A stretch of DNA of 64,000 bases from a virus (IMGVR_UViG_3300010412_000002:42630-106629), one strand, 5' to 3'; counted from the stretch's first letter, positions 4,620-31,240 are shown. Made by a program: numbers and translations. Notes: generated from the sequence alone by a model not told the origin.

Positions 4620-4855
4620 TGAACTTATCTGAACAAAGTTATTATCCTAAGAAAATCAAACTGGCTCAATTATTCTTTGAACGATATTTCATTGAGGGTA
4701 GAAGTGGAAGATTACCACTAAATGAGTTTGAGTTTGATAGTGGCAATATGTGCTACGTACCAGTAAATATGACAAAAGAACGTGAGGTTACGCTTTCAAT
4801 GAAACAATTTGAACAAGCTGCACGTTTAGGAACAGTAGAAGAAATTCATGATTAA
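4619..4855 (+). CDS. Hypothetical protein
   Basis: 78-aa ORF, TAATG-coupled to the upstream gene and overlapping the TerL start. Confidence 0.7.
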   Translation: MNLSEQSYYPKKIKLAQLFFERYFIEGRSGRLPLNEFEFDSGNMCYVPVNMTKEREVTLSMKQFEQAARLGTVEEIHD

Positions 4856-10741: not shown

Positions 10742-12214
10742 ATGGCAACTACTAGAAGTCAATTTATTATTAAGCATTACGATGGATTTGGTGGCAACTT
10801 TGTTGACTCCCAATATCTGGCTGCTTCTTACGAAACTGGCAAGCCGCACATGTTCAACAATACTCTGATGAAGATTTATTCTTCGCAGAATCGTTGGTTC
10901 ACTGGCAAGCCGCTGCTCGGTATGACGGGCGCAAAATCTTTCGGTAAAGTAACTATTGATACCGAAATTTTCCGTTGGAAACTGCAAGGTGCTGAAGAAA
11001 AAGTCGCCCGCGTTGTTGAGAACGTGGACGTCTCTAACACTACTCCAGGCCTGAATGGTGCTACTTTCCGTATCAAACTCGATCTTGATTACTATGCAGA
11101 ACCGGATGTACTCCTTCCGGAAGATAACGATTTCCCTTGTGAAATCATTGGTGATCCTATTCAAGATGGTACTGGTTATGTGTACGTTCTACGTCTGCAG
11201 GGTGATGATCCTACCTCTGTACTCCCCGCTTACCTCATGGAAGAAGGTCGTGAGTGGAGCAAAGGCTGGACCACGGTACAATCCGAATACAACAAGAAGT
11301 TTGGTACCCAACAGGTTCCTGCTTCCTTCATGCTCGAAAGCCAAGTTGGTGCCTTCGCTCAGAAGTTCACTGTAACTGATAAGGCTATGCGTGATGAAGG
11401 CCGTTTGGCAGTTGAATTCATGGTAACTGACCCCAAAACTGGCAAAGAAACCGTAGTTAAGCGTTTCATGCCTATGTTCGAAGCTAAGATGCACGATGAA
11501 CTCTATATGTCTATGGAGTATCAATTCCATCTTGGTCGCAAGCAAACTCGTCCTGGTCATGACGGTTACTGGAAGAAGACTGGTCCCGGTCTGCGTCAGC
11601 AACTTGCTGATTCTTGGATCGAGTACTATAATGGTCCCCTGACTGTTAACCGCCTGAAGGATTACTTGCTTTCTATTTTCTTCTCACGTGAGAATGAGCA
11701 GAATAGAAAAGTCACGGTTATGACTGGTACCCTTGGTTCCTTGATTTTCCATGACATGCTCGCTTCCGAAGCTTCTAGCTTCTTCACGGTTGATACTAAC
11801 TTCGTACAGCAGATTTCAAAGAATCCGCGTCACCTTTCCTTCGGTGCTCAATTTACGCACTACCAAGGTCCGGAAGGAATCGAAGTTACGTTGATCAAAA
11901 ATCCACTTTACGATTCTCGTAAATTCTGTAAGCGCATGCACCCGCTGTATCCGGAATTCCCAATTGATTCCGCACGCTTTACTTTCCTTGACTTTGGTAC
12001 TTCCGATGGTCGTAATAACATCTCGATGGTTGAAGTTGCTGATACCTATCGTTATGGTTACACCGTAGGTACTGTAGGCCCAATGGGTCCAGTTAAAGGT
12101 GGTCAGGCTGGTGCTCTTGTCGCTGGTTATGATATGTTCGTAGAAGGTACTGGTGGTATCTGGATGGTAGACATTACCCGTGGTGGTGAATTGATCTACG
12201 ACTACGAATATTAA
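10742..12214 (+). CDS. Major capsid protein
   Basis: Position, 490 aa, FRWKLQG, KTGPGLRQQL, VMTGTLG, FGAQFTHY.GPEG..VTL..NPLYD; codon bias typical of highly expressed genes. Confidence 0.92.
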   Translation: MATTRSQFIIKHYDGFGGNFVDSQYLAASYETGKPHMFNNTLMKIYSSQNRWFTGKPLLGMTGAKSFGKVTIDTEIFRWKLQGAEEKVARVVENVDVSNTTPGLNGATFRIKLDLDYYAEPDVLLPEDNDFPCEIIGDPIQDGTGYVYVLRLQGDDPTSVLPAYLMEEGREWSKGWTTVQSEYNKKFGTQQVPASFMLESQVGAFAQKFTVTDKAMRDEGRLAVEFMVTDPKTGKETVVKRFMPMFEAKMHDELYMSMEYQFHLGRKQTRPGHDGYWKKTGPGLRQQLADSWIEYYNGPLTVNRLKDYLLSIFFSRENEQNRKVTVMTGTLGSLIFHDMLASEASSFFTVDTNFVQQISKNPRHLSFGAQFTHYQGPEGIEVTLIKNPLYDSRKFCKRMHPLYPEFPIDSARFTFLDFGTSDGRNNISMVEVADTYRYGYTVGTVGPMGPVKGGQAGALVAGYDMFVEGTGGIWMVDITRGGELIYDYEY

Positions 12215-13260: not shown

Positions 13261-13986
13261 ATGATAATCACCGAAATGCACTACGACTTTGACGTGAAAA
13301 TTGATAAAGTAGCGTCATCGGGTAAGGCAAACTTTACACGGCCTGAAAAAGACTGGCTATTAAACCGTGGTACCGAGCTTTTCATTAAGCAAAAATATGG
13401 AATGAATAATCCGCATAGGACAGGTTTTGAAGGAAGTCAAAAACGAATTGATGATTTAAAATCACTCGTAATTAAATATCCTGAACAACCTGGAATCACT
13501 CCTACAGTGCATGATGAAAATACTTATGAAGTACCACTAAGCTCTTTGGTCTATCCCTATTGGTTCTTAGTCCGAGGTAGTGCTGAGGTAGTCTTTTCAG
13601 ATTGTGTTCAATCCGCTTCTCTGAAGTTTATACAGCATGATGATTTAAATTATGCTCTTAAAGATCCTTTCAATAAGTCTTCTCGTGAAGAAATCCTATT
13701 TAACTTCGGTAGATCCTCCCAGGATCCAAGTATAGATTCTATTTATCTATACCCTGGGGGGTTAACCTTAGGTAAAATTTATTTGGAATATATTAAGCAG
13801 CCAGCAAGACTAAACTATGGCGGCTACCAATATATTGATGGAGTTACATACGCCCAAACAAATAGTGATCTTCCAGAACATACACATAGTGAGATAGTCG
13901 ACTTAGCCGTGCAATTAGCTGCTGGCATTATAGAGGATCCTAACTACGTACAGTTGAAAACACAACAAGTGTTCACAAATGAATAA
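13261..13986 (+). CDS. Head-tail ring protein
   Basis: EKDWLLNR, GFEGSQKRIDDLKSL, YIKQPARL, DLPEHTHSEIVDLAV; synteny. Confidence 0.8.
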   Translation: MIITEMHYDFDVKIDKVASSGKANFTRPEKDWLLNRGTELFIKQKYGMNNPHRTGFEGSQKRIDDLKSLVIKYPEQPGITPTVHDENTYEVPLSSLVYPYWFLVRGSAEVVFSDCVQSASLKFIQHDDLNYALKDPFNKSSREEILFNFGRSSQDPSIDSIYLYPGGLTLGKIYLEYIKQPARLNYGGYQYIDGVTYAQTNSDLPEHTHSEIVDLAVQLAAGIIEDPNYVQLKTQQVFTNE

Positions 13987-15456: not shown

Positions 15457-16143
15457 ATGGCTAAGGCTAAATTTTTTCTTAACGAAAATCGCAATACACA
15501 AATTGATCCTTCTACGGCTCTTCCTACTGACATTTATTTGCCTGCAAATAATGGTCGTGATGTAATCCGTCGGGAATCTACACAAGGTCGATTTTCTACT
15601 ACTGTCCCAAGCTATTCTGTTTCTCTTAACAGCTATCTTACTAATTGGTTAGCAGAGAACTTTGATGCTGGGGATATTGTCTATCCCTTTACAGGTAACT
15701 TTGAGGTAGCTTCCGATACTGCTGTTATTACATCTGCAGTTGGTGTAGGTGTGACTGCTACTGCAGGTGAAATTGATCTAACTTCTGCTGGAGGACCTAT
15801 TGACATTAATTCTGCTACTGCTATCACTCTGGATTCGGACGGCGCTACAACTATCACTGCTGCCACCAATCTAACTGCTGAAGCAACTGCAGGCAAACTT
15901 AATCTTGTTGCAGGTACTTTGGATGTAGATATTGACGCCAATACGGATGTAACTGTTAACGCCACTACTGGTGATATCATTCTTACATCTGGTGATGATA
16001 TTATCTTTACTCCAACTGCTAATCTCACGTTCACTCTTGCCGCTATTCCTACTTATGCAGACGATACTGCTGCAGGTGTTGGAGGATTGACCGCAGGTCA
16101 AGTTTACAAGCAGGCTACTGGAGAATTAATGATCAAACTTTAA
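15457..16143 (+). CDS. Head fibre/decoration-like protein A
   Basis: Thr/Ala/Gly-rich beta repeats (G.I.LTS); C-terminus IPTYADDTAAGVGGLTAGQVYKQATGELMIKL shared with the next gene. Confidence 0.6.
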   Translation: MAKAKFFLNENRNTQIDPSTALPTDIYLPANNGRDVIRRESTQGRFSTTVPSYSVSLNSYLTNWLAENFDAGDIVYPFTGNFEVASDTAVITSAVGVGVTATAGEIDLTSAGGPIDINSATAITLDSDGATTITAATNLTAEATAGKLNLVAGTLDVDIDANTDVTVNATTGDIILTSGDDIIFTPTANLTFTLAAIPTYADDTAAGVGGLTAGQVYKQATGELMIKL

Positions 16144-16153
16144 TTTCTAATCT

Positions 16154-16888
16154 ATGGAAACTCATCTTAAAAGAAACGATATGCCTACTAGGGCACAAAG
16201 ATTCGATGTAACCGTTCCGGCAGATATTTGGATTCCTAACCAGGATGAGTTCATTACTCCACCTTCTAGAAAGAATGTGGGATTTGGCGGATTTATTTCT
16301 ACCTCTCGTAAAGGTACTAAATTCTCTCTAAAGGAATTTGTCGCTAGTGTAGCCAATGCAACTATTAGCGCTGTTAACGGTCTTACGGAATCTTTAGGAA
16401 CAGTAAAACTAGGCGGTTCTCTTACCGAGAATACTACTATTACTGGTACTACGTATGACCTTGCAGTTACTACTTCGACTGGGGATATAACTTTCACGAC
16501 TACAAATTCTGCAGGAAGTATTGATCTTACTTCTGCTGGGGCTATTGATATTACTAGCAGCCAATCACTATTTGTAACTGCTCCAAGTAATCAAGCGACA
16601 TTTGGAGGTCACACTACTTTTATTTCAACATCTTCTCCTACTGGTCTAGACATTAATGTAACCGCAAATGACGGGGTACTCATTAGAGCTGAAGGAGTTG
16701 TAGGAAGTAATACAAATGTTGATATTGAATCTGCTGTAGGTGATATTACTCTCACTGCAGCTGGTAATATTAATATGGCTCTTGCTTGTATACCAACATA
16801 TGCAGATGATACTGCGGCAGGTGTAGGTGGACTTACTGCAGGAGAACTATATAAAACTGCCACTGGCTCTCTTCAAATTAAACTCTAA
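16154..16888 (+). CDS. Head fibre/decoration-like protein B (paralogue of A)
   Basis: NGLT...VKLGGSLTENTTI fibre motif; C-terminus IPTYADDTAAGVGGLTAGELYKTATGSLQIKL. Confidence 0.6.
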   Translation: METHLKRNDMPTRAQRFDVTVPADIWIPNQDEFITPPSRKNVGFGGFISTSRKGTKFSLKEFVASVANATISAVNGLTESLGTVKLGGSLTENTTITGTTYDLAVTTSTGDITFTTTNSAGSIDLTSAGAIDITSSQSLFVTAPSNQATFGGHTTFISTSSPTGLDINVTANDGVLIRAEGVVGSNTNVDIESAVGDITLTAAGNINMALACIPTYADDTAAGVGGLTAGELYKTATGSLQIKL

Positions 16889-16890
16889 TC

Positions 16891-17385
16891 ATGACTTTAA
16901 CTGTAAACTCCGATTGTACATCCTTACAGATAGTTTCTACTTTGATAGATGATTATATTGCTACACCTACTGTAGATTTAACATTATCCTTTGAAGACTG
17001 TGAAGGTACTACATACGAATATGATATTGTGGAGGGGACTGATGTTACTGCAGGTACTCCCAATTTTGCAACTATTACTCCTGCTCAGATTATTTCTGCT
17101 ACCGCCACAGAGTTTCCTGACGGAGTTTATCAGGTAACACTTACTGCGGATGATAGCGGCACAATTACTACTGAAGTACAATGCATGTTAGTAGATTGTG
17201 ACTTGGAATGTAGAGTATTCGATTTTCAAGCAGAGAATCTTACTTCTAGGGTTTCGCAGTATTACGAAGCACTTAAATTAGGAGAAACGTGTGATAACTG
17301 CTCCTGCACTGGGATGTGCTCTCTTTACAATAAAATACTTGATCTTTTAGCAAACAACACAGAAAATGATTGTGGATGTCAGTAA
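16891..17385 (+). CDS. Tail hub-like Cys-rich protein A
   Basis: PDGVYQVTL, Cys cluster, C-terminal DCGCQ; position of crAss tail-hub genes. Confidence 0.55.
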   Translation: MTLTVNSDCTSLQIVSTLIDDYIATPTVDLTLSFEDCEGTTYEYDIVEGTDVTAGTPNFATITPAQIISATATEFPDGVYQVTLTADDSGTITTEVQCMLVDCDLECRVFDFQAENLTSRVSQYYEALKLGETCDNCSCTGMCSLYNKILDLLANNTENDCGCQ

Positions 17386-17725
17386 TCTAGATTTAGCTGC
17401 ACTAAGGTGCTATGCATTCTTCAATGCTTCTCAAATTGCATTAGCAGAGGAGTATGGTATTGAATGTAATACAGAGTATTACGAAACTCAGATGCATAAG
17501 GCCTTAGCATACTTGTTTTTAGCAGAGAATTGTGCGGCTAATCTCACTGACGAGATCTTCTGTGCAATTCAAGAATTTATTGATGATGCATTATTTAGTG
17601 CATTATATGTTCGAAGAAACAGTGAAGATTGCGCTGAAGGAGCTTCTGATCCAGTTTGTATTTTAACAATCACCGATAATGTAACTTCTTGTACTGGAGG
17701 ATTATCAATAAACATATTGCAATGA
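17366..17725 (+). CDS. Tail hub-like Cys-rich protein B
   Basis: EEYGIEC motif, helical, paired with the upstream gene. Confidence 0.5.
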   Translation: MIVDVSNLDLAALRCYAFFNASQIALAEEYGIECNTEYYETQMHKALAYLFLAENCAANLTDEIFCAIQEFIDDALFSALYVRRNSEDCAEGASDPVCILTITDNVTSCTGGLSINILQ

Positions 17726-19269
17726 TAACGATAACAAAACATATTACATTAAATCCTGGTGTAGGTGAGACTGGCCCTTATAATTATACTTGGGGCGTTA
17801 CCTCATCTTCTTCTGGATGTGTTACGTTTTCTCCATCTACCACTGGAACTATTGCAAATCCTTCGTCTGGATCAATTATTACTGATATTAATTTTCTTAA
17901 TGGTACATGTATTGATGACAGTACTATTACTTTAACTATTAGTTATAATGGAGGTACTTGTAGTAAAGTATTTCCTATTACTATTGCAGATCCTTGCGAT
18001 GATTTAGATGTAGCAATTAGTGCTACTACAACAGATGCTTACCTATTTACTGCGGTAGCCTCTGGTGGGGAAGGCCCTTATACGTATACGTGGGGCTGGG
18101 ATGAAGACCTATTTACCCCTGCAGGAAGTTCTGGGAACTCACAAGTTCTTAAACTGACATACATCGGAGGATCAGTGCCTCCTGCACAATCAACTGTTTT
18201 CTTAACTGTTGCAGATCAAAATGGATGTAGCTTTACTACATCTCAAGATTTTGCAACTTGCTCTCTTTCTTTTGATCCAGTGAGCGTTATTCTAGAATGT
18301 CAACCTGACGGATCTCGTTCCGCAGTGGTATGTTTAGACCCACTAGGATGTGCTACATCCTTAGTAGATTGGACTACATTCCAAAGTAACAGCGCACTAA
18401 TGGATGTGACTTTACTTCCGCCAACTCTATTTGGACAAAATTTTGCTTGTTATGTAAATGGAGGAAGACGGGCGCGTATTACAATGGATGCTGATACTAA
18501 TCCTGGCAACAGTGGTTACAACACGTTCTACTGTTACGTACAAACTACAACAGGAGTAACTGCAAGTATTCAAGTTACGGCTACTTATCCAAGTTGTACT
18601 ATTCCGCCTGTTAATCCTATTAGCATTGCTGCTCAAGCTCCTTTCCAAATTGACTGTAGTTATACGCCTGGAAGTACGTACGAAATTGGCCCAATTACGG
18701 ATTTCATCACCACGTATAATGGTGGGCAGATTGACTTTACTTCATTTCAATTTATTCCACTCGATACTGGTATTCCGACTGCAGGACCTGTCACGACTAC
18801 ATTAAGTGGTAGCGCAGACTACAACAATGCTACCAAGATGATAGAGTATACAGTACCTGCGGCAACTGGCACGGATGCTTTTATGTGGACAATATGCGAT
18901 ACCGCAGGAAACTGCGCAGAATCTCAAATATATGCTATTGTTCTTGATTGCACTCTTAGTCCTACTGCTGTTAATGATTCCGAATGTGCCGTTTGTGGAG
19001 AAGCTATTGAGCACGATGTGTTGTCTAACGATACTGTTAATGGTGTTTTATACAATGTTTCCATTGCTTCTTCTCCTTCTCATGGCTCTGCTGTTTTTAA
19101 TGGCGACTTTGGGACTCCTCGTATTATTTACACTCCCAATGCTACTTACAGCGGTAGCGACTCATACGATTATACAGTATGGAATGACTCTGGTGAATCG
19201 GATACGGCGACTGTTACCGTAAACGTACTTTGTGCTGGAGCTGATTCTGAAATAGCTACTTGCGAATAA
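17722..19269 (+). CDS. Multi-Ig-like adhesin-type protein with SprB-like repeat and cadherin/Big_9-like domain
   Basis: ASGGEGPYTYTW...TVADQNGC (SprB-like); PTAVND...VLSND...PSHG...YTPNATYSGSDSYDYTV (Big_9-like); 20 Cys; ATG at 17722 forms ATGA with the upstream stop. Confidence 0.75.
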   Translation: MITITKHITLNPGVGETGPYNYTWGVTSSSSGCVTFSPSTTGTIANPSSGSIITDINFLNGTCIDDSTITLTISYNGGTCSKVFPITIADPCDDLDVAISATTTDAYLFTAVASGGEGPYTYTWGWDEDLFTPAGSSGNSQVLKLTYIGGSVPPAQSTVFLTVADQNGCSFTTSQDFATCSLSFDPVSVILECQPDGSRSAVVCLDPLGCATSLVDWTTFQSNSALMDVTLLPPTLFGQNFACYVNGGRRARITMDADTNPGNSGYNTFYCYVQTTTGVTASIQVTATYPSCTIPPVNPISIAAQAPFQIDCSYTPGSTYEIGPITDFITTYNGGQIDFTSFQFIPLDTGIPTAGPVTTTLSGSADYNNATKMIEYTVPAATGTDAFMWTICDTAGNCAESQIYAIVLDCTLSPTAVNDSECAVCGEAIEHDVLSNDTVNGVLYNVSIASSPSHGSAVFNGDFGTPRIIYTPNATYSGSDSYDYTVWNDSGESDTATVTVNVLCAGADSEIATCE

Positions 19270-19279
19270 ATAACTTGAT

Positions 19280-20014
19280 ATGGCAATTATAATCACACCT
19301 TACGATATTTTAACAGACAATAACGCGGGTGTTGCGCCAACTACTGGAGGTACGTGGTCATATGTCGGCACTGGATCTACTGGTGCCGCACCACTTCCCC
19401 CTAATCCACCTGGTTTATACGATGGTACTCTAGATTTTACTGGGGTAACTAATGCTCCGGCAGGTACGTATATTTATCGATATACTGTTACTTCTGGAGG
19501 ATGTTCCGCTTATGCAGATCTTGACGTTTCTAACTTTGACCACATTATTGTAAAAAATGATGTGTGTGCATCTGCAAGAGAAATCGTATTCCCTTATAAT
19601 GGAGGAACCGCAACTTTGCCCAATCAGTTATTAGGTGAAGCATGCCCTGGCCAAATCCACCCAACTTACTCAGCAACTGCTACTCCTACTGAATGGGGTA
19701 GTGCGACATTTGTAGGAGATTTATGGTATGAATTAAACTATGATGCTACTTATCTGCCTGCTACCGACATTCCTATTGTAATGTCAATAACTGCGGATGG
19801 TATTCCTTACGGAAGTGAAGGAATTGTAGAACCATATTTAGCTGTCTATTCTTCTTGTACACCCGGTCTTGTAGAAGCAGATGTTCCTATTAGTGGATCA
19901 CAAAGCATCGATATAATCATATCGGATGTATTTACAAGTAACTTTACATACTACATTAGAGTAGCATGTGTAGATGGAAATCAAGGAAAATTTAATATTT
20001 CTGTAACAACCTAA
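19280..20014 (+). CDS. Ig-like protein with Bacteroidota surface-protein domains
   Basis: TTGGTWS...GTYIYRYTVTSGGCSA then NDVCASA...DLWY...LAVYSSC...TYYIRV. Confidence 0.65.
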   Translation: MAIIITPYDILTDNNAGVAPTTGGTWSYVGTGSTGAAPLPPNPPGLYDGTLDFTGVTNAPAGTYIYRYTVTSGGCSAYADLDVSNFDHIIVKNDVCASAREIVFPYNGGTATLPNQLLGEACPGQIHPTYSATATPTEWGSATFVGDLWYELNYDATYLPATDIPIVMSITADGIPYGSEGIVEPYLAVYSSCTPGLVEADVPISGSQSIDIIISDVFTSNFTYYIRVACVDGNQGKFNISVTT

Positions 20015-20016
20015 TA

Positions 20017-20310
20017 ATGGCTATCATATACACCACCCCTAGTGGTAATGTTCAAACATCTGTAAATACTGCTAATAGAAGGGATGATGGAACTAGCGGC
20101 TCGTCTTCATCAGGAGATAAGCATTATACCCATTATCAAGGTGTAGCATCTACAACATGGAATGTAACCCATAATCTAGGGAAATATCCTGCTGTGCAAG
20201 TACTAGATTCTGCTAAAAACCTAGTAACTGGAGATGTACAGCATATAGATCTAAATAATACCGTGCTCAGCTTTGCGTACGCTTTCTCGGGCTCGGCAAC
20301 TTTTAATTAA
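20017..20310 (+). CDS. Small fibre-associated protein (HNLG domain)
   Basis: ASTTWNVTHNLGKYPAVQVLDS...IDLNN...FSGSA, a common phage fibre module. Confidence 0.7.
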   Translation: MAIIYTTPSGNVQTSVNTANRRDDGTSGSSSSGDKHYTHYQGVASTTWNVTHNLGKYPAVQVLDSAKNLVTGDVQHIDLNNTVLSFAYAFSGSATFN

Positions 20311-20315
20311 AATAT

Positions 20316-22205
20316 ATGGCTCACTTATTTCACACTCCAATTGACCTTAATCAATTGGAAGTTTTAAACCCAACTTTTCAGTTGTTAGGATCGGCCCCGG
20401 GTACACCCGTTGAGGGCCAATTCTATTATAATACAACTGATGATGGAGTGTATTTTCGTAACGGGTCAGCTGCCTGGGAAAAGTTCGTAGGCACAATTAA
20501 TAACGTTGGTACTATTGCTGGAGCGGTAGACGGAGCCAATGATTATTTTGTAATCTACGATGGTTCTGCAAGTGCAAACGTAAAAGTAGCAGTAGACACT
20601 TTACTGTCTGATGTAGGACCATTTGAGAATGTTCTAACCTTCTCTAACGGCCTAACTCGCACAGTTGATGCAATTGCACTAGGTGGAACACTTACTGGTA
20701 ATACAACCATTAACGGAAGTACTAGTTATTACCTGGATGTAACTGGTAGCTCGGGTAGTATTGTTCCATTGCATGCTACTAACACTTCAACTGGTACAGC
20801 ATTACTAGCAACAGCTTCTGAATCATCTGCAATTGAATCAGTGATAGAAACTACCAATACTAATTCAGTTTACCAGAACATTACTCTTACAAGAACTAGT
20901 TCAGGAACTCCTGCAAATGGTATTGGTTCATCAATTCAATTTAATATTGAAACAACTGTTGCTACTCGCGCTGCAGGTTCTTTTCAAATGCTGTGGACAG
21001 ATGCTACAGATGCTACTCGTACTTCGGCAATTGATCTTTATACAACTAATTCTGGCTCAACTTCACGTAAAGTACGTATCGCGGGTTCTGGGCAGCTTAC
21101 GCTGGACGGCTATGGTACGGGTACTTTTACTGGTACCGATGCATATTGGCTTGCTGTAGATTCCTCAGGTAACATTATCGAAGAGGCAGCGCCAGGAGGT
21201 GTATCTGATACTTATTCTACTGTAACAGGTGACACTGGAACTGCTTCTGCTACTGGTGCAGAAACTCTTGATTTTTCCGGTGGAACTGGTATTAGCACTA
21301 CTGTAACTGCAGGTTCTCCGGATGATGTAACTATTGCAATTGACGTAAACTCAACTGTAGATTTTTCGGCTAGTACTCCTGTATGGACTTTTGGTAATGA
21401 AACTACCGCAGAAGGTTTGTTTGTAACTGGTACTCCCGTAGATGGAAACCACGTAGTTAATAAAACCTATGTAGATAATTTGGCTAGCGGACTTGATGGC
21501 AAAGCATCTGTTCTTGTCGCCACCACTGCTGATATTACTATTGCCACCGCACTTAATAGTGGGGATACTATTGATGGTGTACTTCTTGCTGATGGTGATC
21601 GCGTGCTTGTTAAGAACCAAGCTGCCCCAGCAGAAAATGGTATTTACGTAGTAGACGCTTCCCCATTCCGCGCAACTGATGCAGATGCTTGGGACGAGCT
21701 TGTCGCTGCGTATGTATGGGTAGAAGAAGGAACTGTTAATCAAGATACTGGCTGGCTTTGTACTGTAGATGCAGGTGGAACACTAAATACTACTGCAGTT
21801 ACTTGGACATTATTTGCCTCTGCAACTGCACTTATTGCTGGCGAAGGTCTTGCCAAGACTGGAAATGCAATTGATCTAGATCTCAGTGATCTTACTTCTC
21901 TTGGAGCTACCGCAGCTTTGGATGATACTTTGGGTATCTATGACACTGACGCTGTTTCTACAAAGAAAATTACTGTAGCAAATCTCTTAAATGCCCACAA
22001 GTATGCCACAACGACTAATGTTGGTACTGCTGAAGGTGCAGTGGTTGTAAACCACGCATTAAATAGTACTGATGTTATTGTTCAAGTATATGATACTTCT
22101 ACTAGCGATGTTATCACCATTGATATTGATATCACGGATGCTAACAACGTAACCATTCAAGCGTCGGGTTCAACTCGTTCTGTTCGTTGTATTGTAATGC
22201 GGTAA
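20316..22205 (+). CDS. Tail fibre protein
   Basis: PGTPVEGQFYYNT, VNKTYVD...KASVLVATT...IDGV.L..GDRVLVKNQ..ENGIY; C-terminal H-x-L-N..DVIVQVYD module. Confidence 0.85.
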   Translation: MAHLFHTPIDLNQLEVLNPTFQLLGSAPGTPVEGQFYYNTTDDGVYFRNGSAAWEKFVGTINNVGTIAGAVDGANDYFVIYDGSASANVKVAVDTLLSDVGPFENVLTFSNGLTRTVDAIALGGTLTGNTTINGSTSYYLDVTGSSGSIVPLHATNTSTGTALLATASESSAIESVIETTNTNSVYQNITLTRTSSGTPANGIGSSIQFNIETTVATRAAGSFQMLWTDATDATRTSAIDLYTTNSGSTSRKVRIAGSGQLTLDGYGTGTFTGTDAYWLAVDSSGNIIEEAAPGGVSDTYSTVTGDTGTASATGAETLDFSGGTGISTTVTAGSPDDVTIAIDVNSTVDFSASTPVWTFGNETTAEGLFVTGTPVDGNHVVNKTYVDNLASGLDGKASVLVATTADITIATALNSGDTIDGVLLADGDRVLVKNQAAPAENGIYVVDASPFRATDADAWDELVAAYVWVEEGTVNQDTGWLCTVDAGGTLNTTAVTWTLFASATALIAGEGLAKTGNAIDLDLSDLTSLGATAALDDTLGIYDTDAVSTKKITVANLLNAHKYATTTNVGTAEGAVVVNHALNSTDVIVQVYDTSTSDVITIDIDITDANNVTIQASGSTRSVRCIVMR

Positions 22206-22217
22206 TAAATTTTAACT

Positions 22218-24716
22218 ATGTCTAAGAAATACGCAACTACTATAGATGCAGATGGCTTGTTAGTAAACACTCCATCGTCTACTTCTACCAATGAAGTAAT
22301 AGCTAGATTCACCATATCAGATGCTTCTGGGAGTGAAGAACTTCGGATCGACAACCGTTCAGTATCTGATGGATCATTCTGGCCTTCTATTAATGCTTTA
22401 GGAACTACTAGTACTACGGCCATGTATGTAATGGGTACTAGTACAAGCGACAATTCCTCTGATAATGCTGTAATTAGACTAGGTGGAGTTAAAGTACCAA
22501 GCATAGCGGCTCCTTATACTAGCCGCACTTCATTTTCTGCTAGACCAATAGTACAGATTATGAATGGTACGGCTGCTATAACTGCTGTTGTTGGTTACGA
22601 CGGACAATGGACGTTGTCTCCTACTACTGCTTCCAAGGAATACTTGACTACTCGTGGCCATTTATCAGGAACAGAGGAACGATTTACCGTTCTTAACAGT
22701 AGTGAATCTTCTTGGGTTAATAGCGTGGCTGTATCTAACACGCAATCAGATATAGCAGGAATAACGTTGGCAAAAGCTGCTGGTACTACTTTATCAAGTA
22801 CTCCTACTGCAATTACCACGGGAGAATCAGTTGCAAGAATTGATGCCACAGGGTACTTTGGAGCTACTGCTGGGTGGAACACAAATGCTTCAATTGCATT
22901 CAATGTAGGTACAGTTACAACTGATACCCACATGCCAATGTCAATTACTTTCAGTACATCCAATCAGTTGGAAGGTAACCTAACAAGCGCGTTAGTTCTT
23001 CAATCAACTCAACAAGCTACACTTAGTCAATATGGATCTGGGACGTATACTGGAACTCCTGCTTATTACTTAGCGATTGACTCAAGTGGTAATATAATCG
23101 AAGAAACTGGAGGTGCAGGTGATGGCAATGGTATCTACGATGGAAGTGGTACTATTGGAGCAGCTGCTGTTGCAACTATTACAGGAACCTCTACGTTTAC
23201 GATTGATTGGTCAGATACTACAGATGCTTTATTATTTACAGATAGTACCAAAGTATTAAAATTCGATGGGGCTAGACTAGACATAGGTGGAGGAACAACT
23301 GCTCCCTCACTAAGATTCTGGGAACCATCAGGTAGTGGTTCTAACTATGTTGAGTTTAAAGCTATAGCTACTACTTCTGACCAAACTTATACTTTACCTG
23401 TAGCTTACCCATCTACTTCAGGTAGAGCATTAATATCCTCTACAGGAGGGGCTATGTCTTGGGCAACATTAGAAAACTGGGGAGACATCTGGGTAGTTAA
23501 TACTGATGGTAGTGTACAGGTTACTGCTGATCAGAATAACGATGGTATAACATATTATTCCCCAGACAATTCTATTCGTATGGTTGGTGACAATGCATAC
23601 GGTGGATTTAGTGATGATGCTATTACTTGGAGATTAGCAATTGACAAGTTAACTAACTCACTTACTTCGGGCACATTAGCTACTGGAGATCTTTTCGTAG
23701 TATGGGATCTGGATGCGAACGAAAATAAATATATTACCGCTAATGAAATGTCTTCCTACTTTGGAGGTGGAGGTGGTGGTATATATGGAGGTTCTGGAAC
23801 CATTGCTTCTGCGGCAGTAGCTACATTGACATCTAGTTCTACATTTACTATTGATTATAGTGGCGGAACAGATGCTATTACTATTACCGATACTACAAGT
23901 ACGATTCGATTAAACGGTTCTGCTATTTATATTGGAGGAGAAGCTTCTACTACTGAGATGAGATTTCTTGAAGCTTCTGGAAATGGATCAGAGTATACAG
24001 GATTTAAAGCTCCAGATTCCCTCGGAGCAAATCAGATGTACACGCTACCATCCGATACCCCTAATGATGGCGACGTATTAGAGTGGAATACAGGAGGGAC
24101 CCTATCTTGGGAAACAAGAGTAACTGGTCCAGGAGCTGTTACTGATAATACCATTGCTTTATTTAATGGTACTTCTGGAAATGCGATAGACAGTTCTGGT
24201 GTAACTCTTACAACAGCTACTGATCAATTTACTTTGACTAATGGTAACGCATCACTTATTGTTGACGATAATTCTGGTGGGGCAGGAGCACTTAGGCTGT
24301 CTATCAGCGCCACTGGTATCGCTCAAGTTGATGTTGCAGGATCTCCTGATGACATCGTTAGCAGGACAGCCTCTCAAACAATTACTAACAAATTTATAAA
24401 TCCTAGAGTATACAGTACAGCTAGCGCTTCCTCAGTTTCTATAGATGGTGGTTATGATCACTATCAAGTAACTGCTTTAGCAACTGGCTTAACTATTGAT
24501 GATACTATTGCTACTACTCCTGCTGCAGGGCAAAGAGTAGTATTAAGAATACAAGATAGTGGTAGTTCTCAATCATTAACCTGGGATCCAGGATTTGTTC
24601 CTGTCGGAGTAACGTTACCTACAGCAACTACTTCCGGTAAATTGCATTATTTTGGAATGATCTGGAATAATACAGATTCTGTATTTGATGTAGTTGCTTA
24701 TTCTGTAGAAGCTTAA
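22218..24716 (+). CDS. Tail fibre protein with internal 111-aa duplication
   Basis: S/T/G-rich beta fibre; GPGAVTDNTIALFNGTSG; SQTITNK; C-terminal GQRVVLRIQDSG..LTW..GVTLPTATTSGK adaptor-type domain. Confidence 0.85.
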   Translation: MSKKYATTIDADGLLVNTPSSTSTNEVIARFTISDASGSEELRIDNRSVSDGSFWPSINALGTTSTTAMYVMGTSTSDNSSDNAVIRLGGVKVPSIAAPYTSRTSFSARPIVQIMNGTAAITAVVGYDGQWTLSPTTASKEYLTTRGHLSGTEERFTVLNSSESSWVNSVAVSNTQSDIAGITLAKAAGTTLSSTPTAITTGESVARIDATGYFGATAGWNTNASIAFNVGTVTTDTHMPMSITFSTSNQLEGNLTSALVLQSTQQATLSQYGSGTYTGTPAYYLAIDSSGNIIEETGGAGDGNGIYDGSGTIGAAAVATITGTSTFTIDWSDTTDALLFTDSTKVLKFDGARLDIGGGTTAPSLRFWEPSGSGSNYVEFKAIATTSDQTYTLPVAYPSTSGRALISSTGGAMSWATLENWGDIWVVNTDGSVQVTADQNNDGITYYSPDNSIRMVGDNAYGGFSDDAITWRLAIDKLTNSLTSGTLATGDLFVVWDLDANENKYITANEMSSYFGGGGGGIYGGSGTIASAAVATLTSSSTFTIDYSGGTDAITITDTTSTIRLNGSAIYIGGEASTTEMRFLEASGNGSEYTGFKAPDSLGANQMYTLPSDTPNDGDVLEWNTGGTLSWETRVTGPGAVTDNTIALFNGTSGNAIDSSGVTLTTATDQFTLTNGNASLIVDDNSGGAGALRLSISATGIAQVDVAGSPDDIVSRTASQTITNKFINPRVYSTASASSVSIDGGYDHYQVTALATGLTIDDTIATTPAAGQRVVLRIQDSGSSQSLTWDPGFVPVGVTLPTATTSGKLHYFGMIWNNTDSVFDVVAYSVEA
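23130..24110 (+). repeat. Two 111-codon diverged repeats (23130-23462 and 23778-24110)
   Basis: GIYDGSGTIGAAAVATITGTSTFTIDWS...LRFWEPSGSGSNY..FKA...YTLP...GAMSW vs GIYGGSGTIASAAVATLTSSSTFTIDYS...MRFLEASGNGSEY..FKA...YTLP...GTLSW; same length. Confidence 0.9.
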
Positions 24717-24735
24717 ATATATTAATATATAAACC

Positions 24736-26013
24736 ATGTCTCTATTCTATACTCTTATTGTACCTTTTCTGGTTTCTTTTTTCTCAATTACAGAAGGCAC
24801 ATGGATTACGGATTGTGAAGTCCAAGATGCGTGTGCGGATGCTTGTAACTATACTGATAGTCCAGTATACGTTAATCAAGATTGTTTAGAGAAAGTTGCT
24901 AACCTATCTGATTGGTCAGATCTACAAGGAGATAACTGCGATACAGTATTCCTAAAACCTGGGGATTATACTGGACTTGGCAATCTTGAGTATTCTGATC
25001 TTAATTCAAACACGGTAGTACTGTATGGACTAACCTATCCTATGGGTTCCGGTACTACTTCTGCTGTGCGTATTCTTTCCTTCAATGATCCGGATTTCAC
25101 AGACTCAAAACTTGAGTTTGTTAATATCATCTTCGAGGAAGGAGTAAGCATCGCAGCTCAGCCTACATCTAGCTTTGGTTGGTTTAATGATTCCGACATT
25201 ACGTTTAACTGCTGCTTATTTGAAGATTATGGATTTTCCTCTACGGATGATCCGCAAAAAGCACAAGCTCCTGACATCGGGTTCTTTAGCTGCTATTTCG
25301 ATGCTTGTGATGTAGGAATTGCTTTTGGAAATGGCTATGTTAAAAACTGTATCTTCGATGCCTGTGGAGTTGGCATTGATCTCTATGCTGCACATCCAGC
25401 TAGTTACGATGCGGTTGGACATACTGTTGAACTTGACTCCCTAGTATTTATTGGCGATGAATCTGAAGCTGTTAATTACGCAGTTATAGATAACAGTGAA
25501 TATTATGGATACTACGATGAAAATGAAAATTGGGTAGATGCAGATAACATTAGTTATACTGAACTTACTAATTCTTCATTTATTGATATTGAAAAAGGAG
25601 TTACTCTAGATGCAGGAGTTGCACATGAATTTAACTACTATTTCTATCATCTATGGTTCTTACCTCTTAACGTTACTCCAAGTACCTATGGAGCTATTGA
25701 TCATCCTGAACTTACTTGGTCTGGATTTGGAACTAAGTCCAGTACTATTTCAGGTTGCCGATTTGTAGACTTTAGTAATGTTGCTCCTAATAATCTTTCT
25801 TGCGATTATCCAGATAGTCAGATTAACATGAGTAGCTCACTATTTGAATACTGCGGATCTGGAGTTTATAACTGGGTAAGTTGTACTGGAAATTACCATA
25901 GAAATTCTAGTTCTAATTGTAACTCAAGTGCTTATCCTTCTTCTTACACGTTTTGGTATCCTACCAATACTAATGTGAAGAACTCGGCAAAAACTTCTTA
26001 TACAATTAACTAA
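24736..26013 (+). CDS. Parallel beta-helix (pectin lyase-like) protein with hydrophobic N-terminus
   Basis: DTVFLKPGDY cap motif; coil repeats FNCCLFED, FFSCYFDACDVGI, VKNCIFDACGVGI, ISGCRFVD; 16 Cys; N-terminus MSLFYTLIVPFLVSFFS. Confidence 0.65.
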   Translation: MSLFYTLIVPFLVSFFSITEGTWITDCEVQDACADACNYTDSPVYVNQDCLEKVANLSDWSDLQGDNCDTVFLKPGDYTGLGNLEYSDLNSNTVVLYGLTYPMGSGTTSAVRILSFNDPDFTDSKLEFVNIIFEEGVSIAAQPTSSFGWFNDSDITFNCCLFEDYGFSSTDDPQKAQAPDIGFFSCYFDACDVGIAFGNGYVKNCIFDACGVGIDLYAAHPASYDAVGHTVELDSLVFIGDESEAVNYAVIDNSEYYGYYDENENWVDADNISYTELTNSSFIDIEKGVTLDAGVAHEFNYYFYHLWFLPLNVTPSTYGAIDHPELTWSGFGTKSSTISGCRFVDFSNVAPNNLSCDYPDSQINMSSSLFEYCGSGVYNWVSCTGNYHRNSSSNCNSSAYPSSYTFWYPTNTNVKNSAKTSYTIN

Positions 26014-26021
26014 TACAAGAT

Positions 26022-26060
26022 AGGGTGTGTTGGCCAAGGCAACTTGGCCTTACATTCTTA
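26022..26060 (+). terminator. Stem-loop with GCAA tetraloop after the beta-helix gene
   Basis: GGCCAAG-GCAA-CTTGGCC core, extended by AGGGTGTG/TACATTCT; weak U tract. Confidence 0.6.
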
Positions 26061-26073
26061 ACTTCTAAATAAT

Positions 26074-26775
26074 ATGGCAACAGAAACATTTACATCATCA
26101 GGTAGTTGGTCTAAACCTGCGGGAGTTACATCTGTATTCGTAGAATGCTGGGGAGCTGCTGGAGGAGGAGGTGCATCAAATAATACTTCAAATGGTGGTG
26201 GAGGAGGCGGAGGTGGTGCCTATGCCTCTGATACAGTTGCGTATAGTTCTGGAGCATCATCGGTAACTTATGTAGTTGGTACTGGTGGTGCAGGCGGTAC
26301 TGGCACAAGTGCTGGCATTAGTGGAGGACACACTTATTGGGGAGCATCTTTTGATGTATTTGCAAGAGGTGGATATGGTGGTGGAGGTACTGCAGGTGGA
26401 AACGGTAGTTCTGGAGCAGGAGGAGAAGATTCCCTTAGTGCAGGTTCTACAAAATACGCCGGAGGAGCTGGGTCTGCCGGAAACGGTGGAACATACGGAG
26501 GCGGCGGTGGCGGCGGTGGAGCTGGATCTACTGGAGCTGGTGGTACGGCTACTAGTACTGCAACTGGCGGAACTGGAACTTCTGAAAATGGGGGTGATGG
26601 CGGTAATGGAGGAATTGGAGCAGGAACCACTGGAAATAATTACGGAGGTGGTGGAGGTGGAGGCCGTAGAAGCGGTAGTCCATCATCAGGCCCTGGTGGC
26701 GATGGAGCTGGAGGTTATATTAGGATTACATATACACTTCCTACATCGACAGGAAATTTCTTTTTAGTACTTTAA
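26074..26775 (+). CDS. Glycine-rich (polyglycine-type) fibre-tip/adhesin protein
   Basis: TFTSSGSW..PAGVTSV.VECWGAAGGGG...VVGTGGAGG...GGDGAGGYIRITY; C-terminal GNFFLVL. Confidence 0.8.
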   Translation: MATETFTSSGSWSKPAGVTSVFVECWGAAGGGGASNNTSNGGGGGGGGAYASDTVAYSSGASSVTYVVGTGGAGGTGTSAGISGGHTYWGASFDVFARGGYGGGGTAGGNGSSGAGGEDSLSAGSTKYAGGAGSAGNGGTYGGGGGGGGAGSTGAGGTATSTATGGTGTSENGGDGGNGGIGAGTTGNNYGGGGGGGRRSGSPSSGPGGDGAGGYIRITYTLPTSTGNFFLVL

Positions 26776-26804
26776 ATAGCAATATAATATAATATTTATA
26801 AATT

Positions 26805-27068
26805 ATGAAACAGACTAATACTATTAATTTTTCGCAAAACGCGATTGAAACTATTGAACCTACTCTTGAAACTATTAATAAGTTAACTCAAGAGATTCTA
26901 AATCTAAATTCTCAATTAGAAGTTTTTATTAAAGGGTTTGCTTCCGCTCAGAATATTCCTGACGGAGCTGTTTTAAAGCTGTCACAAGATGGCAAACAAT
27001 TGCTTGTCTTCGAGAAAGAAATCGAAGAGCAAGAAGAACCCACAAAATCTAAAACTAAAAAGAAATGA
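26805..27068 (+). CDS. Small coiled-coil protein, possible fibre chaperone
   Basis: Heptad INKLTQEILNLNSQLE, charged tail, position after the fibre genes. Confidence 0.55.
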   Translation: MKQTNTINFSQNAIETIEPTLETINKLTQEILNLNSQLEVFIKGFASAQNIPDGAVLKLSQDGKQLLVFEKEIEEQEEPTKSKTKKK

Positions 27069-27736
27069 GTTTAAGAAATAATAGATATTTTACTCTCTGG
27101 CAAAACTCAGATGATAGAGAACTAATATTGCTAGATGACGTAAAGAACTTGCGCCATCTTGTAACTGCGTTAGATCCAGCTTTAGCAGATGCTGCGTTGG
27201 ACTACTTTGCAATTCATGACAGATCTTCTGGCCATGCAAAGCAATTTACTATTAATGATCTTGTTACCCTCTTAAGTACACTTGGTGTTGGTGGGGGAGT
27301 AATTCAGTATAATACTGGAGATGTAACAATCACAGCTTCTGACACAGGTGTAACAGCTAGTAGAGATGCAGTCAATGGCATCGTTACTATTACTGTTCCA
27401 GAAGATGTACACCTTTTCGGAGCCAACGTATATGGTGTTCAAACAGACACAGATTCATCTAACAACCTTAAAATCAAAGTTGTATATACTAATGAAACTG
27501 TTGTTAACCAAAATACTAGAACTGCAGATATTCCACAAGTAGAATTTGTCGATCTTACTATTCCTTACGCATCTAATGGCGGAGTAGTATCTGAAACATA
27601 TCCAGGTGTTTATGCTAAAACATCTGCAAAGGATGTTTCTCTAGTAACCGCAGAACTTGATGGTTCTGATGCAGTGCTCCAAGTTAAAGTAGAGAGCATT
27701 GTAGAAACTAACTTTTTAATAAAATTAACATTTTAA
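27065..27736 (+). CDS. Fibre-associated structural protein
   Basis: DYFAIHDRSSGHAKQFTINDL module shared with the fibre genes; ATGA-coupled. Confidence 0.6.
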   Translation: MSLRNNRYFTLWQNSDDRELILLDDVKNLRHLVTALDPALADAALDYFAIHDRSSGHAKQFTINDLVTLLSTLGVGGGVIQYNTGDVTITASDTGVTASRDAVNGIVTITVPEDVHLFGANVYGVQTDTDSSNNLKIKVVYTNETVVNQNTRTADIPQVEFVDLTIPYASNGGVVSETYPGVYAKTSAKDVSLVTAELDGSDAVLQVKVESIVETNFLIKLTF

Positions 27737-27738
27737 GA

Positions 27739-29802
27739 ATGAAACGTATTGTAATATTTATATTAACCATACTGCCATTCTTAGGGTATTCTCAAGTAGA
27801 AGAAGACTTTGGGGGAAGATTTATCTTCTACCATGACACACTTATCCCTACTACGGAAAGCTTTTATGTGGAAGGTATTTATGCCCATCCACGTAACGCG
27901 TACACCGCAGACTCTGCATCAGTAGGAGATATCATTGTGGATTGCGATTGCAATGCTTTCGTAATTGATACTATTCACTCTGTATTGTCTAACATTCTTT
28001 CTCTTACGATTACACCCCAAGATACGTCAGTGAATGATATTCGTTCCTGCACAGGCGGTATTCTTAGAGCTAAATCTCCACCAAATGGAAATTATGCTTT
28101 TCCTGCTGGAGTTCCTGATAACATAGCAGATTGTATTCTAAACTTTAACTTATCAAATACCTACGATATCTTATTTAGTACAGATACACTTTATATTGCA
28201 GCTGATACACTCTATCTTATAGTAAAAGGAAATACTCAAAAGATACCTCTATCTAGTATTAATGATGGTAATGGTATTTACAGCGGTGATGGGGTCTTAG
28301 TGACAGAGACTGATGTTACTCAGAATGCCTTTAAGATCAACTTTAGCTCTGATGTAAATGGCAGCTACGGGGGCAGATTTAGTAACTTAGGAACTGGTGG
28401 TACTGGTGTTCAAGGTATTGGGAAAGGATATGGAGTAAGAGCTACTGGATCTAGTATAGCTGATGCTGTTGGATTATGGGCAGAGAATACCTCAGCTTCT
28501 GCTTATACCGTACTCATAGCAAATTATTCAACTGCCAATGGTATACTACCAATGATGTCTTTTCAAAGACCTTCTGCCACAACTGCTGCGATAGGAGATG
28601 GAACCGGAATTGAATTTCAGGCAAAGAATGGTTTTGGTGGGAATCCAATTTATTTAAAGATTCAAGGATACTTGTCAGATCTATCTAGTGGGGCTGAAGA
28701 CGGTGTGTTTACTGTTAAACTTATGGAAGAAGGAGCAACAGCTGCTGATAGGCTCACTCTGGCTTCTACAGGAGCATTAACACTTCAAGGATATGCTAAT
28801 GCTGCGTTAGTAAATGCTGACTCTTCTCTGTATGCTATGACTCTAGACGAAACTGGAGACGTGCATGCAGTAGCTGTAAGTGGACTTGCAGATGGGTTCA
28901 TCGGAACTACTAATGCTACTCTTACGAGTAATCGTACTATTACTAACGCAGGTTTTAGTTTCATTATGTCTAATAATACTTCTACTACTACTTTCAGAGC
29001 AAACAATACTGCAGCTAGTGGTACCGCTATTTATGGTAACTCTACTTTAAGTTATGGAGTTCGTGGTTATTCTGGATCTAATTACGGTGGATATTTTGAA
29101 AGTAATGGTGCTAGCAGTGGGGCGTTATATGTGAATAATACTTCAACTGGTACTGGGGCTGTTATTGGTGCTAATTCTGGAATCGCTCTAATTGCAGGAT
29201 CTACAGGTCAAATAGCTATACGTGCTAGTGAAGACGGATCTACTACTAATACTGTTGTAGATGTGTTTGAAATGGCTACAACCACTAGTGGTACAGCTGC
29301 TGATGGCTATGGTATAGGAATGAGATTTACTGCTGAACAAGCTTCTGGATCTAGTACTACGATGGGATCAGTAGATATGTATTGGGAAGATGCTACTAAC
29401 GTAAACCCGGAACTTAGAATACAAATGCGTGAAGAAGGTTCTGCTGAAACTACTAAGTTAACTTTGGAGTCTACTGGTATTATGACTCTTCAATCTGGTG
29501 TACGTGATAATGTACTATCGGAAGTATCTTCTACTACCACTGCTACTTTATACAAAACTCTACCAGTAAACACTACTGGTGGTGGATTTGATATTGATGT
29601 TCCAACTGCACCTGTTGCAGGTGATTGGTTTGCTGTAGTTGACTCTCGTGGACAAGCTGGTAGTAATAACATTACCGTAAACTTTACTGGAGCCACCGTA
29701 AATTTCCATGGAGCTAGCAACGATTATGTCCTTGTAGCTACCAATGAGTATGCTCGTTTCACCTATGTAAATGCTACAGTAGGTTGGGTTAAATCTAACT
29801 AA
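27739..29802 (+). CDS. Fibre-like protein with N-terminal Sec signal peptide
   Basis: MKRIVIFILTILPFLGYS|Q; fibre modules DGNGIYSGDG and GVRGYSGSNYGGYF; C-terminal VNTTGG..PTAPVAGD...NNITV...YVNATVGW phage fibre domain. Confidence 0.75.
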   Translation: MKRIVIFILTILPFLGYSQVEEDFGGRFIFYHDTLIPTTESFYVEGIYAHPRNAYTADSASVGDIIVDCDCNAFVIDTIHSVLSNILSLTITPQDTSVNDIRSCTGGILRAKSPPNGNYAFPAGVPDNIADCILNFNLSNTYDILFSTDTLYIAADTLYLIVKGNTQKIPLSSINDGNGIYSGDGVLVTETDVTQNAFKINFSSDVNGSYGGRFSNLGTGGTGVQGIGKGYGVRATGSSIADAVGLWAENTSASAYTVLIANYSTANGILPMMSFQRPSATTAAIGDGTGIEFQAKNGFGGNPIYLKIQGYLSDLSSGAEDGVFTVKLMEEGATAADRLTLASTGALTLQGYANAALVNADSSLYAMTLDETGDVHAVAVSGLADGFIGTTNATLTSNRTITNAGFSFIMSNNTSTTTFRANNTAASGTAIYGNSTLSYGVRGYSGSNYGGYFESNGASSGALYVNNTSTGTGAVIGANSGIALIAGSTGQIAIRASEDGSTTNTVVDVFEMATTTSGTAADGYGIGMRFTAEQASGSSTTMGSVDMYWEDATNVNPELRIQMREEGSAETTKLTLESTGIMTLQSGVRDNVLSEVSSTTTATLYKTLPVNTTGGGFDIDVPTAPVAGDWFAVVDSRGQAGSNNITVNFTGATVNFHGASNDYVLVATNEYARFTYVNATVGWVKSN

Positions 29803-29954: not shown

Positions 29955-30309
29955 TCAAGAATCTATCGAACTCGCAGTATTCCTTGCGCACTTTGCAAAT
30001 GGAATCTATTTTTCTGCACAAGATGGGAAAGTAAATTGGACTGACGCATTTCATTTTGTAAATGCTGTTACTAAAGCTCCAGCAGCCTTCTCCAATATTA
30101 AGTTGGTACCCAGTGAAATCGAGTCCTGGGATGCAGTAGAAAAATCTCAGGTAATTTCATATTTTAAATCTAACTTGAAATTTGATAAACCTGACCTCGA
30201 GAATAATATTGAAGACATCTTTATGGCAGGTGTAACACTTGCTAAAGCAATCGTAGAACTAATCGAAAAAGAAGAAGATGGCGTGCCCAGTAATCAACCT
30301 GAGGTCTGA
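29947..30309 (+). CDS. Helical hypothetical phage protein
   Basis: DGKVNWTD...APAAFSNIKLVPSEI..WD..EK pattern; function unknown. Confidence 0.7.
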   Translation: MANQESIELAVFLAHFANGIYFSAQDGKVNWTDAFHFVNAVTKAPAAFSNIKLVPSEIESWDAVEKSQVISYFKSNLKFDKPDLENNIEDIFMAGVTLAKAIVELIEKEEDGVPSNQPEV

Positions 30310-31240
30310 TCTTCTTCTAAATGCCGATGCGGGTGGAACGTGGACGTATAACGGATACTCTGCAACATTTGACGGGGACGATGACAATCTAGCTCAGTTT
30401 GTCGGAAGCCCCGCTTCACCTCCCGAGGAAACTGCTTCCTTAATTGGTGATGACCCCACCCTTGATCCAACTGGTCATACGGTGGGGTTTTATTCTTTTA
30501 CCTACTCGCTCGTCTCTGGAGGTTGTTCAGCCGATAATAATATAGTGTTGCCTATCATGGCAACGTATACAGCAGGAGATGATGTCTCCAAAACTATTTG
30601 TCAAGATGATAGATCAATATTTAATCTATTTGATCTCATTGATGACTTTGGAGCAAATGGAGTTGATACAGGAGGAAGTTGGGAACAACTAAATGGGACT
30701 CCTAATCCACATCCTGGTTTCTCTAATAATGTAGATCCTACATTAGCAACATTTGACGTATCTGAAATTGATTGGCCTAATGATACGTTTCCCATTCATT
30801 TTTATTATACTACTCAAGAGCCAGGAGTAGCAGGATTTACGCGAACAAGATGTCCGCAATGCAGTTCTGATCATTCGTCGGTCTACATAACAATGACTGG
30901 TACATCATGTTGCACAGCATCAACCTATTGCTATCAAGGAACAGTTCTAGATGGGACTACTATATATAAAATTACGTACCTAGACGGATCTTTTATAGAT
31001 AATACTAGTGATGCAATGAATTTCCCGTATACCTTACCTGGGGACAATGCAACATTTGAAGCCGATTTAAATAGTTATTTAACAAATAATGGAGGTGGTA
31101 CTTGTACTATTATTGCGAGTGATCCAGCCCCAACCTATAACACTGTTTATGTAGATATTCCATGTAAGAGATTAGATGCTCTGTGTACAACGTCTGACTG
31201 TTCGTTATACACTCGATTTACAGGAGGAATATGTATTTAA
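30278..31240 (+). CDS. Cys-rich Ig-like protein with two GG(T/S)W repeats, related to 19280..20014
   Basis: DAGGTW...GFYSFTYSLVSGGCSA; TAGDDVSKTIC...NLFDLI...DTGGSW; 13 Cys. Confidence 0.65.
   Translation: MACPVINLRSDLLLNADAGGTWTYNGYSATFDGDDDNLAQFVGSPASPPEETASLIGDDPTLDPTGHTVGFYSFTYSLVSGGCSADNNIVLPIMATYTAGDDVSKTICQDDRSIFNLFDLIDDFGANGVDTGGSWEQLNGTPNPHPGFSNNVDPTLATFDVSEIDWPNDTFPIHFYYTTQEPGVAGFTRTRCPQCSSDHSSVYITMTGTSCCTASTYCYQGTVLDGTTIYKITYLDGSFIDNTSDAMNFPYTLPGDNATFEADLNSYLTNNGGGTCTIIASDPAPTYNTVYVDIPCKRLDALCTTSDCSLYTRFTGGICI

Follow-up and report, generated by a model that had tools for sequence, protein, structure and literature searches.

A gene boundary in a crAss-like phage fiber locus divides an Ig/cadherin-like domain after its first strand

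In a crAss-like phage, an Ig/cadherin-like domain is cut by the boundary between two neighboring fiber-type genes, a stalk gene (product P0001) and the tip gene that follows it (P0002). The cut falls directly behind the first (A) strand of the domain; judged by comparison with homologous proteins, it is an old break that has been conserved, with both halves of the split domain under constraint. We favor, with moderate confidence, a model in which the C-terminal tail of the stalk completes the N-terminal domain of the tip protein in trans, where the binding, its geometry, and any disulfide are features that we infer.

The window, the whole stretch of 64,000 nucleotides that was analyzed, spans bases 42630-106629 of an IMG/VR virus record that is 106,629 bp long and has direct terminal repeats. 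It is matched in marine sediment metagenomes from one study; Logan contigs aligned to positions 18900-19700 leave 19234-19700 uncovered. The terminase, portal, major head protein (MCP), and tail ring hallmarks are all present, and by these sequence matches the phage is crAss-like (Crassvirales); its MCP shares 30% identity with the MCP of Flavobacterium phage FpV4 and also has matches among Bacteroides crAss-like phages. The split stalk/tip locus sits in a Cys-rich block of fiber-type genes 3' of the ring protein gene (Table 1). Searches of cultured and deposited phages returned no DNA match to positions 17000-21000 and no tblastn match to P0002, and scans of IMG/VR with single proteins found no relative; the profile scans returned one locus each, L002 and L003. 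Outside the fiber block, a GroEL-type chaperonin gene (2386-4017, + strand; phrog_5725, E 6.7e-142) lies just 5' of the terminase, and the structural block ends in one continuous ORF (43234-63273, + strand), whose 6,679-aa product has just one Cys. Judged from its position in a crAss-like genome, this ORF may encode a virion RNA polymerase or cargo giant protein.

Table 1. Features of the split fiber locus, the second acceptor-type gene, and the phage hallmark genes, in window coordinates
Feature	Position	Strand	Basis or description
Large terminase (TerL)	4848-7136		PHROG match
Portal	7081-9516		PHROG match
Major head protein (MCP)	10742-12214		PHROG match
crAss tail ring 3/4 protein	13261-13986		Pfam CrAss_Ring_3_4, 41.1 bits versus cut-off 27
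Stalk protein P0001, 515 aa, 20 Cys	17722..19269	+	Ig-like/SprB-like domain string, then Big_9 and tail
Big_9 bacterial Ig domain, residues 414-503, last complete stalk domain	18961..19230	+	Pfam PF17963
12-residue tail C-A-G-x7-C-E, residues 504-515, proposed donor strand	19231..19266	+	Homologue alignment
TAA stop and 10-nt spacer	19267..19279	+	Read directly from sequence
Tip protein P0002, 244 aa	19280-20014	+	ATG 10 nt past stalk stop, +1 frame
P0002 N-terminal PKD/cadherin-like domain without A strand, residues 1-88, proposed acceptor	19280..19543	+	AF2, hhalign
P0002 C-terminal beta-sandwich, about residues 93-244	19556..20014	+	Foldseek, weak Pfam
P0003 domain 1, residues 1-96, starts M-A-C	30278..30565	+	Homologues, profile alignment
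P0003 domain 2, residues 97-209, intact reference copy	30566..30904	+	AF2, fold matches
P0003 C-terminal Cys-rich domain	30905..31240	+	AF2 secondary structure; barely reached by fold matches

An earlier sequence-only reading of this DNA had noted that the stalk gene ends with the first part of a repeat and that the tip gene, 10 nt farther on and out of frame, starts with the second, and this arrangement was borne out. Beyond the Big_9 domain, which scores above the Pfam gathering cut-off (match at residues 414-501, 53.6 bits versus 23.6, E 4.3e-14), the stalk protein ends in C-A-G-A-D-S-E-I-A-T-C-E, followed by TAA at 19267-19269. The tail is present in all seven full-length stalk homologues (33-54% identical), a set made up of P0056, P0063, P0067, the P0142 cluster, and the L002 and L003 proteins; the domain evidence for the stalk likewise includes full-length homologues (P0056, P0063, P0067, and L002:2841-4376). 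Residues C504, A505, G506, and C514 are invariant across six aligned stalk homologues, the L003 protein has the tail too, and the stop always falls exactly one residue past the final tail Cys. The last 25 residues are in fact the most conserved stretch of the stalk. Across the whole 106.6-kb genome, the GG[ST]W motif of the second repeat part is restricted to P0002 and P0003, and a gene end of the AG-x7-C type occurs in one real gene only, so the match between the repeat parts goes beyond chance. The A-x2-D-x5-C pattern of the tail recurs in the opening strand of the Big_9 domain of the stalk itself, a likeness of motif only. Giant Big_9 repeat proteins, which dominated a search of representatives with P0001, were considered as fused forms and rejected, since another Big_9 repeat is what comes next wherever their matches extend into the tail.

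The tip side of the boundary is equally well defined. All 20 tip homologues (30-72% identical) begin at the same point, and they are 226-247 aa long with one longer exception (P0021, 378 aa); invariant positions are about twice as dense in the N-terminal domain as in the head that follows. The AF2 model of the N-terminal domain, made without the tail, has a pLDDT of 80-89 and consists of strands at residues 4-5, 25-28, 51-52, 62-72, and 75-85 and a helix at 7-14, with the GGTW motif at residues 23-26. In both this domain and domain 1 of P0003, all later elements are present in the AF2 models and the A strand is absent. Searches of PDB sequences returned no more than marginal PKD-like matches, some family members give weak K319L-like PKD matches, and the Big_9 profile aligns with just the last two strands of the N-terminal domain (E 1e-4). 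In Foldseek, the head matches domains of the collagen-binding and pre-peptidase C-terminal (PPC) type along with several carbohydrate-binding modules (CBMs), and the hits include 1nqj, 5sv5, and 2o8o; 4 of the 20 family members have weak Pfam matches to GBD_T9SS_assoc, the T9SS-associated galactose-binding domain. The model thus points to a head that is likely of the pre-peptidase C-terminal/collagen-binding/galactose-binding type and ligand-binding.

A second protein of the same genome, P0003 (320 aa, gene 30278-31240), holds both an intact copy of the repeat and a copy lacking its first strand, as the sequence-only reading had described. The intact internal repeat was confirmed by direct reading, with A-G-D-D...C at residues 98-108 (A-G at 98-99, Cys at 108) and GGSW at 132-135. 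In the AF2 model of P0003 (pLDDT 87.5), the AG-x7-C segment forms a strand at residues 103-108, and more than 30 single cadherin/Ig domains superpose on residues 97..209 with middling Z-scores of 5.5-6.6, for example, residues 1-101 of protocadherin-19 EC1 on P0003 100-209. The modeled strand together with these superpositions identifies AG-x7-C as the predicted A strand of the cadherin/Ig-like domain 2. Domain 1, in turn, carries GGTW at residues 19-22, and its M-A-C start, which is invariant among 12 P0003 homologues, coincides with the position at which the absent A strand would end. Profile comparison by hhalign places the N-terminal domain of the tip on P0003 domain 1, residue 1 on residue 1 (probability 96.9%, E 1.5e-10), and on P0003 domain 2 from residue 113 on only (E 3.6e-5); residues 94-112 of P0003, at the start of domain 2, are the portion that has no counterpart in the tip.

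The strongest single result of the analysis is the junction in a natural fusion of stalk and tip. P0186, a distant relative of 730 aa encoded on one Logan contig of 7.1 kb, aligns over residues 3-486 with stalk residues 8-514 (26% identity, E 3e-7) and over residues 508-729 with tip residues 21-243 (40% identity, E 5e-42), and it contains a Big_9 match at 384-473 that falls just under the Pfam cut-off (22.7 bits). Its junction consists of AG-x7-C, 21 residues, and TTGGTW, a length equal to that of the stalk tail joined to the tip start. The break aligns without an indel across four split pairs, P0186, and six junctions between domains 1 and 2 of P0003 proteins. The fusion, known from this single sequence, implies that the tail and the tip domain are one structural unit when unsplit. 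Relatives therefore present the split point in both of the forms that the earlier reading had asked about: conserved in 7 stalks and 20 tips, and fused in P0186.

A complex prediction provides a weak indication that the separated parts still come together. Stalk residues 405-515 and tip residues 1-95, with alignments for both, gave a score of 0.42, compared with 0.07 for the best control, and the runs agreed in at least 78% of contacts with a partner pLDDT of at least 75. In the benchmark for this mark, 58 of 80 solved complexes passed, compared with 2 of 110 mismatched pairs. Only 7 of the 80 solved complexes passed with a score of 0.60 or under, a range that also contains both passing mismatches; these counts hold only roughly here because alignments of our own were used.

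According to the model that we favor, P0001 and P0002 would be the two halves of a fiber protein that is made as a single chain in one relative. The stalk would keep the A strand as its 12-residue tail, and the tip would start with the remainder of the domain, followed by the binding-type sandwich. Once the two proteins have been translated separately, the tail most likely slots back into the edge of the first tip domain, so that an Ig/cadherin-like domain would be rebuilt with strands from both chains. The joint is probably aided by contacts of the Big_9 domain with the tip domain, and a disulfide may lock it once the virion is in oxidizing seawater. The outcome would be a two-piece fiber whose ligand-binding head is encoded on its own gene and is exchangeable. 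An interchain disulfide between C514 and C75 of the tip was weighed specifically and kept as a possibility only, since C75 is missing from 6 of the 20 tips, P0015 and P0020-P0024, and its equivalent from the fused P0186.

Several observations speak against completion in trans. The donor segment is short, with about six strand residues of which two or three are hydrophobic, far below a pilus donor strand, and AF2 models the N-terminal domain of the tip confidently without the tail. Domain 1 of P0003, also modeled with good confidence, has neither the strand nor a dedicated donor, suggesting that this type of domain may tolerate the loss. These points lend some substance to an alternative that we nevertheless consider unlikely, namely that the tail is a leftover turned into a cap, in the form of a C504-C514 disulfide loop, and that the tip, its N-terminal domain being stable alone, attaches to the stalk or the virion by other surfaces. 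C504 is found in all seven split stalks, whereas neither the fused P0186 nor any P0003 domain 1-domain 2 junction has a Cys at that position; a Cys peculiar to the split form might pair with C514 to form a closed loop, at odds with an extended strand. The even Cys count of the stalk and the dispensability of C75 in some tips also fit such a cap. A cap, however, would have no need to keep A-G and a strand-like pattern before the last Cys at 33% identity, nor a stop placed exactly one residue past that Cys in such diverged lineages, and the complex prediction exceeded its controls by a wide margin.

We find it quite improbable that stalk and tip no longer touch at all and are independent virion or accessory proteins whose matching ends merely record their history. 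The stalk and tip genes are not adjacent in L002, and P0003 lies 10 kb away in the window, as might be expected of unconnected proteins. Against this stand the existence of the fused relative, the weak support from the complex prediction, the apparent presence of stalk and tip homologues on the same contigs, and the fact that each protein is most conserved at the end facing the cut.

The arrangement of stops and genes around the cut bears on its age. The tip frame has its own in-frame TAA at 19271-19273, so the tip ORF cannot start any earlier, and because this TAA lies past the stalk stop, a frameshift inside the stalk gene cannot fuse the two genes; a stalk-tip fusion by frameshift or read-through was accordingly rejected. 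In L002, a whole gene of 203 aa sits between stalk and tip, and in L003 the order is stalk, tip, and then directly a P0003-like gene, with the tip in the +2 frame relative to the stalk instead of the +1 frame of the window. It is next to impossible that the stop at 19267 reflects a sequencing error or a freshly broken pseudogene, or that programmed frameshifting bypasses it: nothing favors this beyond the 10-nt gap and the fact that a fused relative exists, and it is excluded by the conserved ends (seven independent homologues stop at this very residue), the varied gene order, and the varied relative frames. The same conserved ends contradict a unique recent fission, which the sequence-only reading had named, along with sequence error, as grounds for giving up its proposal.

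That proposal, in which the C-terminal strand of one protein completes the first domain of another as in pilus assembly, holds insofar as the cut falls after the first strand, is old, and has a fused homologue; the likeness to pili is loose, because the strand concerned is A and not G and there would be no polymerizing. In chaperone-usher pili, the subunits lack the C-terminal G strand, which an N-terminal extension of 11-13 residues supplies; assembly requires a periplasmic chaperone and an usher, and the subunits polymerize. What the phage proteins have in common with them is an incomplete Ig-like fold that would be completed by a strand from another polypeptide, but here it is the N-terminal A strand that is absent, and the single donor of the genome is a C-terminal tail. 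Classical cadherins form strand-swap dimers through EC1, exchanging the A strand reciprocally between two complete domains; the fold class and the exchanged element are the same as those proposed here, where instead one domain is split across two genes.

The type V pili of Bacteroidota (FimA/Mfa1) come closer in polarity. A C-terminal donor strand replaces the N-terminal strand of the acceptor, and the pilins are lipoprotein precursors that polymerize after gingipain removes their N-terminal strand (PMC13655056). This donor/acceptor polarity fits the phage sequences, and the likely phylum of the host is the same, but the phage tips start at a Met directly in the domain, without a signal peptide or lipobox. 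P0002 and P0003 also end without a donor tail, so a chain would stop after one joint and not polymerize.

The closest published case is the BppU-BppA joint of phage Tuc2009, in which, as seen in a crystal structure, a 25-residue C-terminal hairpin of BppU completes the sheet of BppA domain 2, and the composite resembles a titin Ig domain while BppA bears a CBM (PMC4742702). Both systems have a C-terminal extension on one structural protein and a partner with an Ig-like domain and a carbohydrate-binding module, the latter recognized in P0002 at the level of fold (the collagen-binding/PPC and CBM matches and the weak GBD_T9SS_assoc matches). As in that system, the extension is specific to forms with a separate partner, the tail being found in all split stalks. 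The phage joint described here differs in that it would consist of one short A strand and an N-terminal acceptor domain, has a natural fused form, and involves binding that is only predicted; searches of Pfam and PHROGs gave no BppU or BppA match. With the Tuc2009 joint on record, the mechanism proposed here, a plausible one, is not new in kind; what makes the case valuable is its natural fused form together with the layout of one donor and two acceptors. A disulfide lock, finally, is conceivable by analogy with crAss001, in which intersubunit disulfides hold the tail together (PMC10172136).

The genome has one donor-type end, that of the stalk, and two acceptor-type starts, those of P0002 and P0003. 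With a single donor, two homologous acceptor domains, and the three genes adjacent in L003, a shared stalk is plausible on sequence grounds. P0003 has no match in the L002 record, which is a 23% fragment. On a two-tip reading, P0003 would contribute two Ig domains and a Cys-rich head, and P0002 a head of the galactose/collagen-binding type. P0003 retains the Cys that the stalk tail would bring as well. A broader version, in which P0002 and P0003 compete for one tail and yield a mixed population of fibers, the joint becomes covalent, by an interchain disulfide, only after release into oxidizing seawater, and the arrangement is a general head-swap seam in crAss-like and other phages, seems to us rather unlikely.

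Even the crAss001 atlas, for which the fibers proved too flexible to model, leaves the fiber and receptor-binding modules of crAss-like phages poorly resolved (PMC10172136). If completion in trans is correct, a conserved seam joining a stalk to an exchangeable head would explain the shuffling of host-recognition modules. It would also yield a rule for annotation, an orphan first strand at one C terminus together with a strand-less Ig domain at an N terminus, and a natural split-domain tag with which chosen heads could be attached to a phage stalk in laboratory studies of host range.

The genes around the seam have features of their own. In L002 (5710-8078), the tip is directly followed by homologues of the window genes at 27065-27736 and 27739-29802, so that, by comparison, the window has about 7 kb of additional sequence here: an extra set of fiber-type genes at the stalk/tip seam (20017-27064; 97, 629, 832, 425, 233, and 87 aa). 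Within this block, the gene at 26074-26775 (+ strand) encodes a glycine-rich domain protein (PF21722, E 1.5e-12) with the PHROG annotation 'tail fiber assembly'. The products of 27739-29802 and 24736-26013 (both + strand) have a hydrophobic, signal-peptide-like N terminus, which is unusual for genes of a virion module; the signal-like segment of the former ends in ...G-Y-S-Q, and the latter has 16 Cys in 425 aa.

Upstream of the stalk, two adjacent paralogues (15457-16143 and 16154-16888, + strand) have near-identical 30-residue C termini of the Y-A-D-D...G-L-T-A-G...I-K-L type, and the C-terminal extension of the long tip homologue P0021 repeats a similar Y-x-D-D...G-x-G motif. The two genes that follow encode Cys-rich proteins, with 11 Cys in 164 aa (16891-17385) and 7 in 119 aa (17366-17725). 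The second of these, on the + strand immediately 5' of the stalk gene, overlaps the start of 17722 by ATGA, and L002 shows the same overlap of a gene of this type with its stalk gene. The 119-aa protein is helical at its N terminus and has, near its C terminus, a C-A-E-G-x5-C stretch followed by two strand-like segments; this stretch recalls the stalk tail and may mark another joint of the same fiber.
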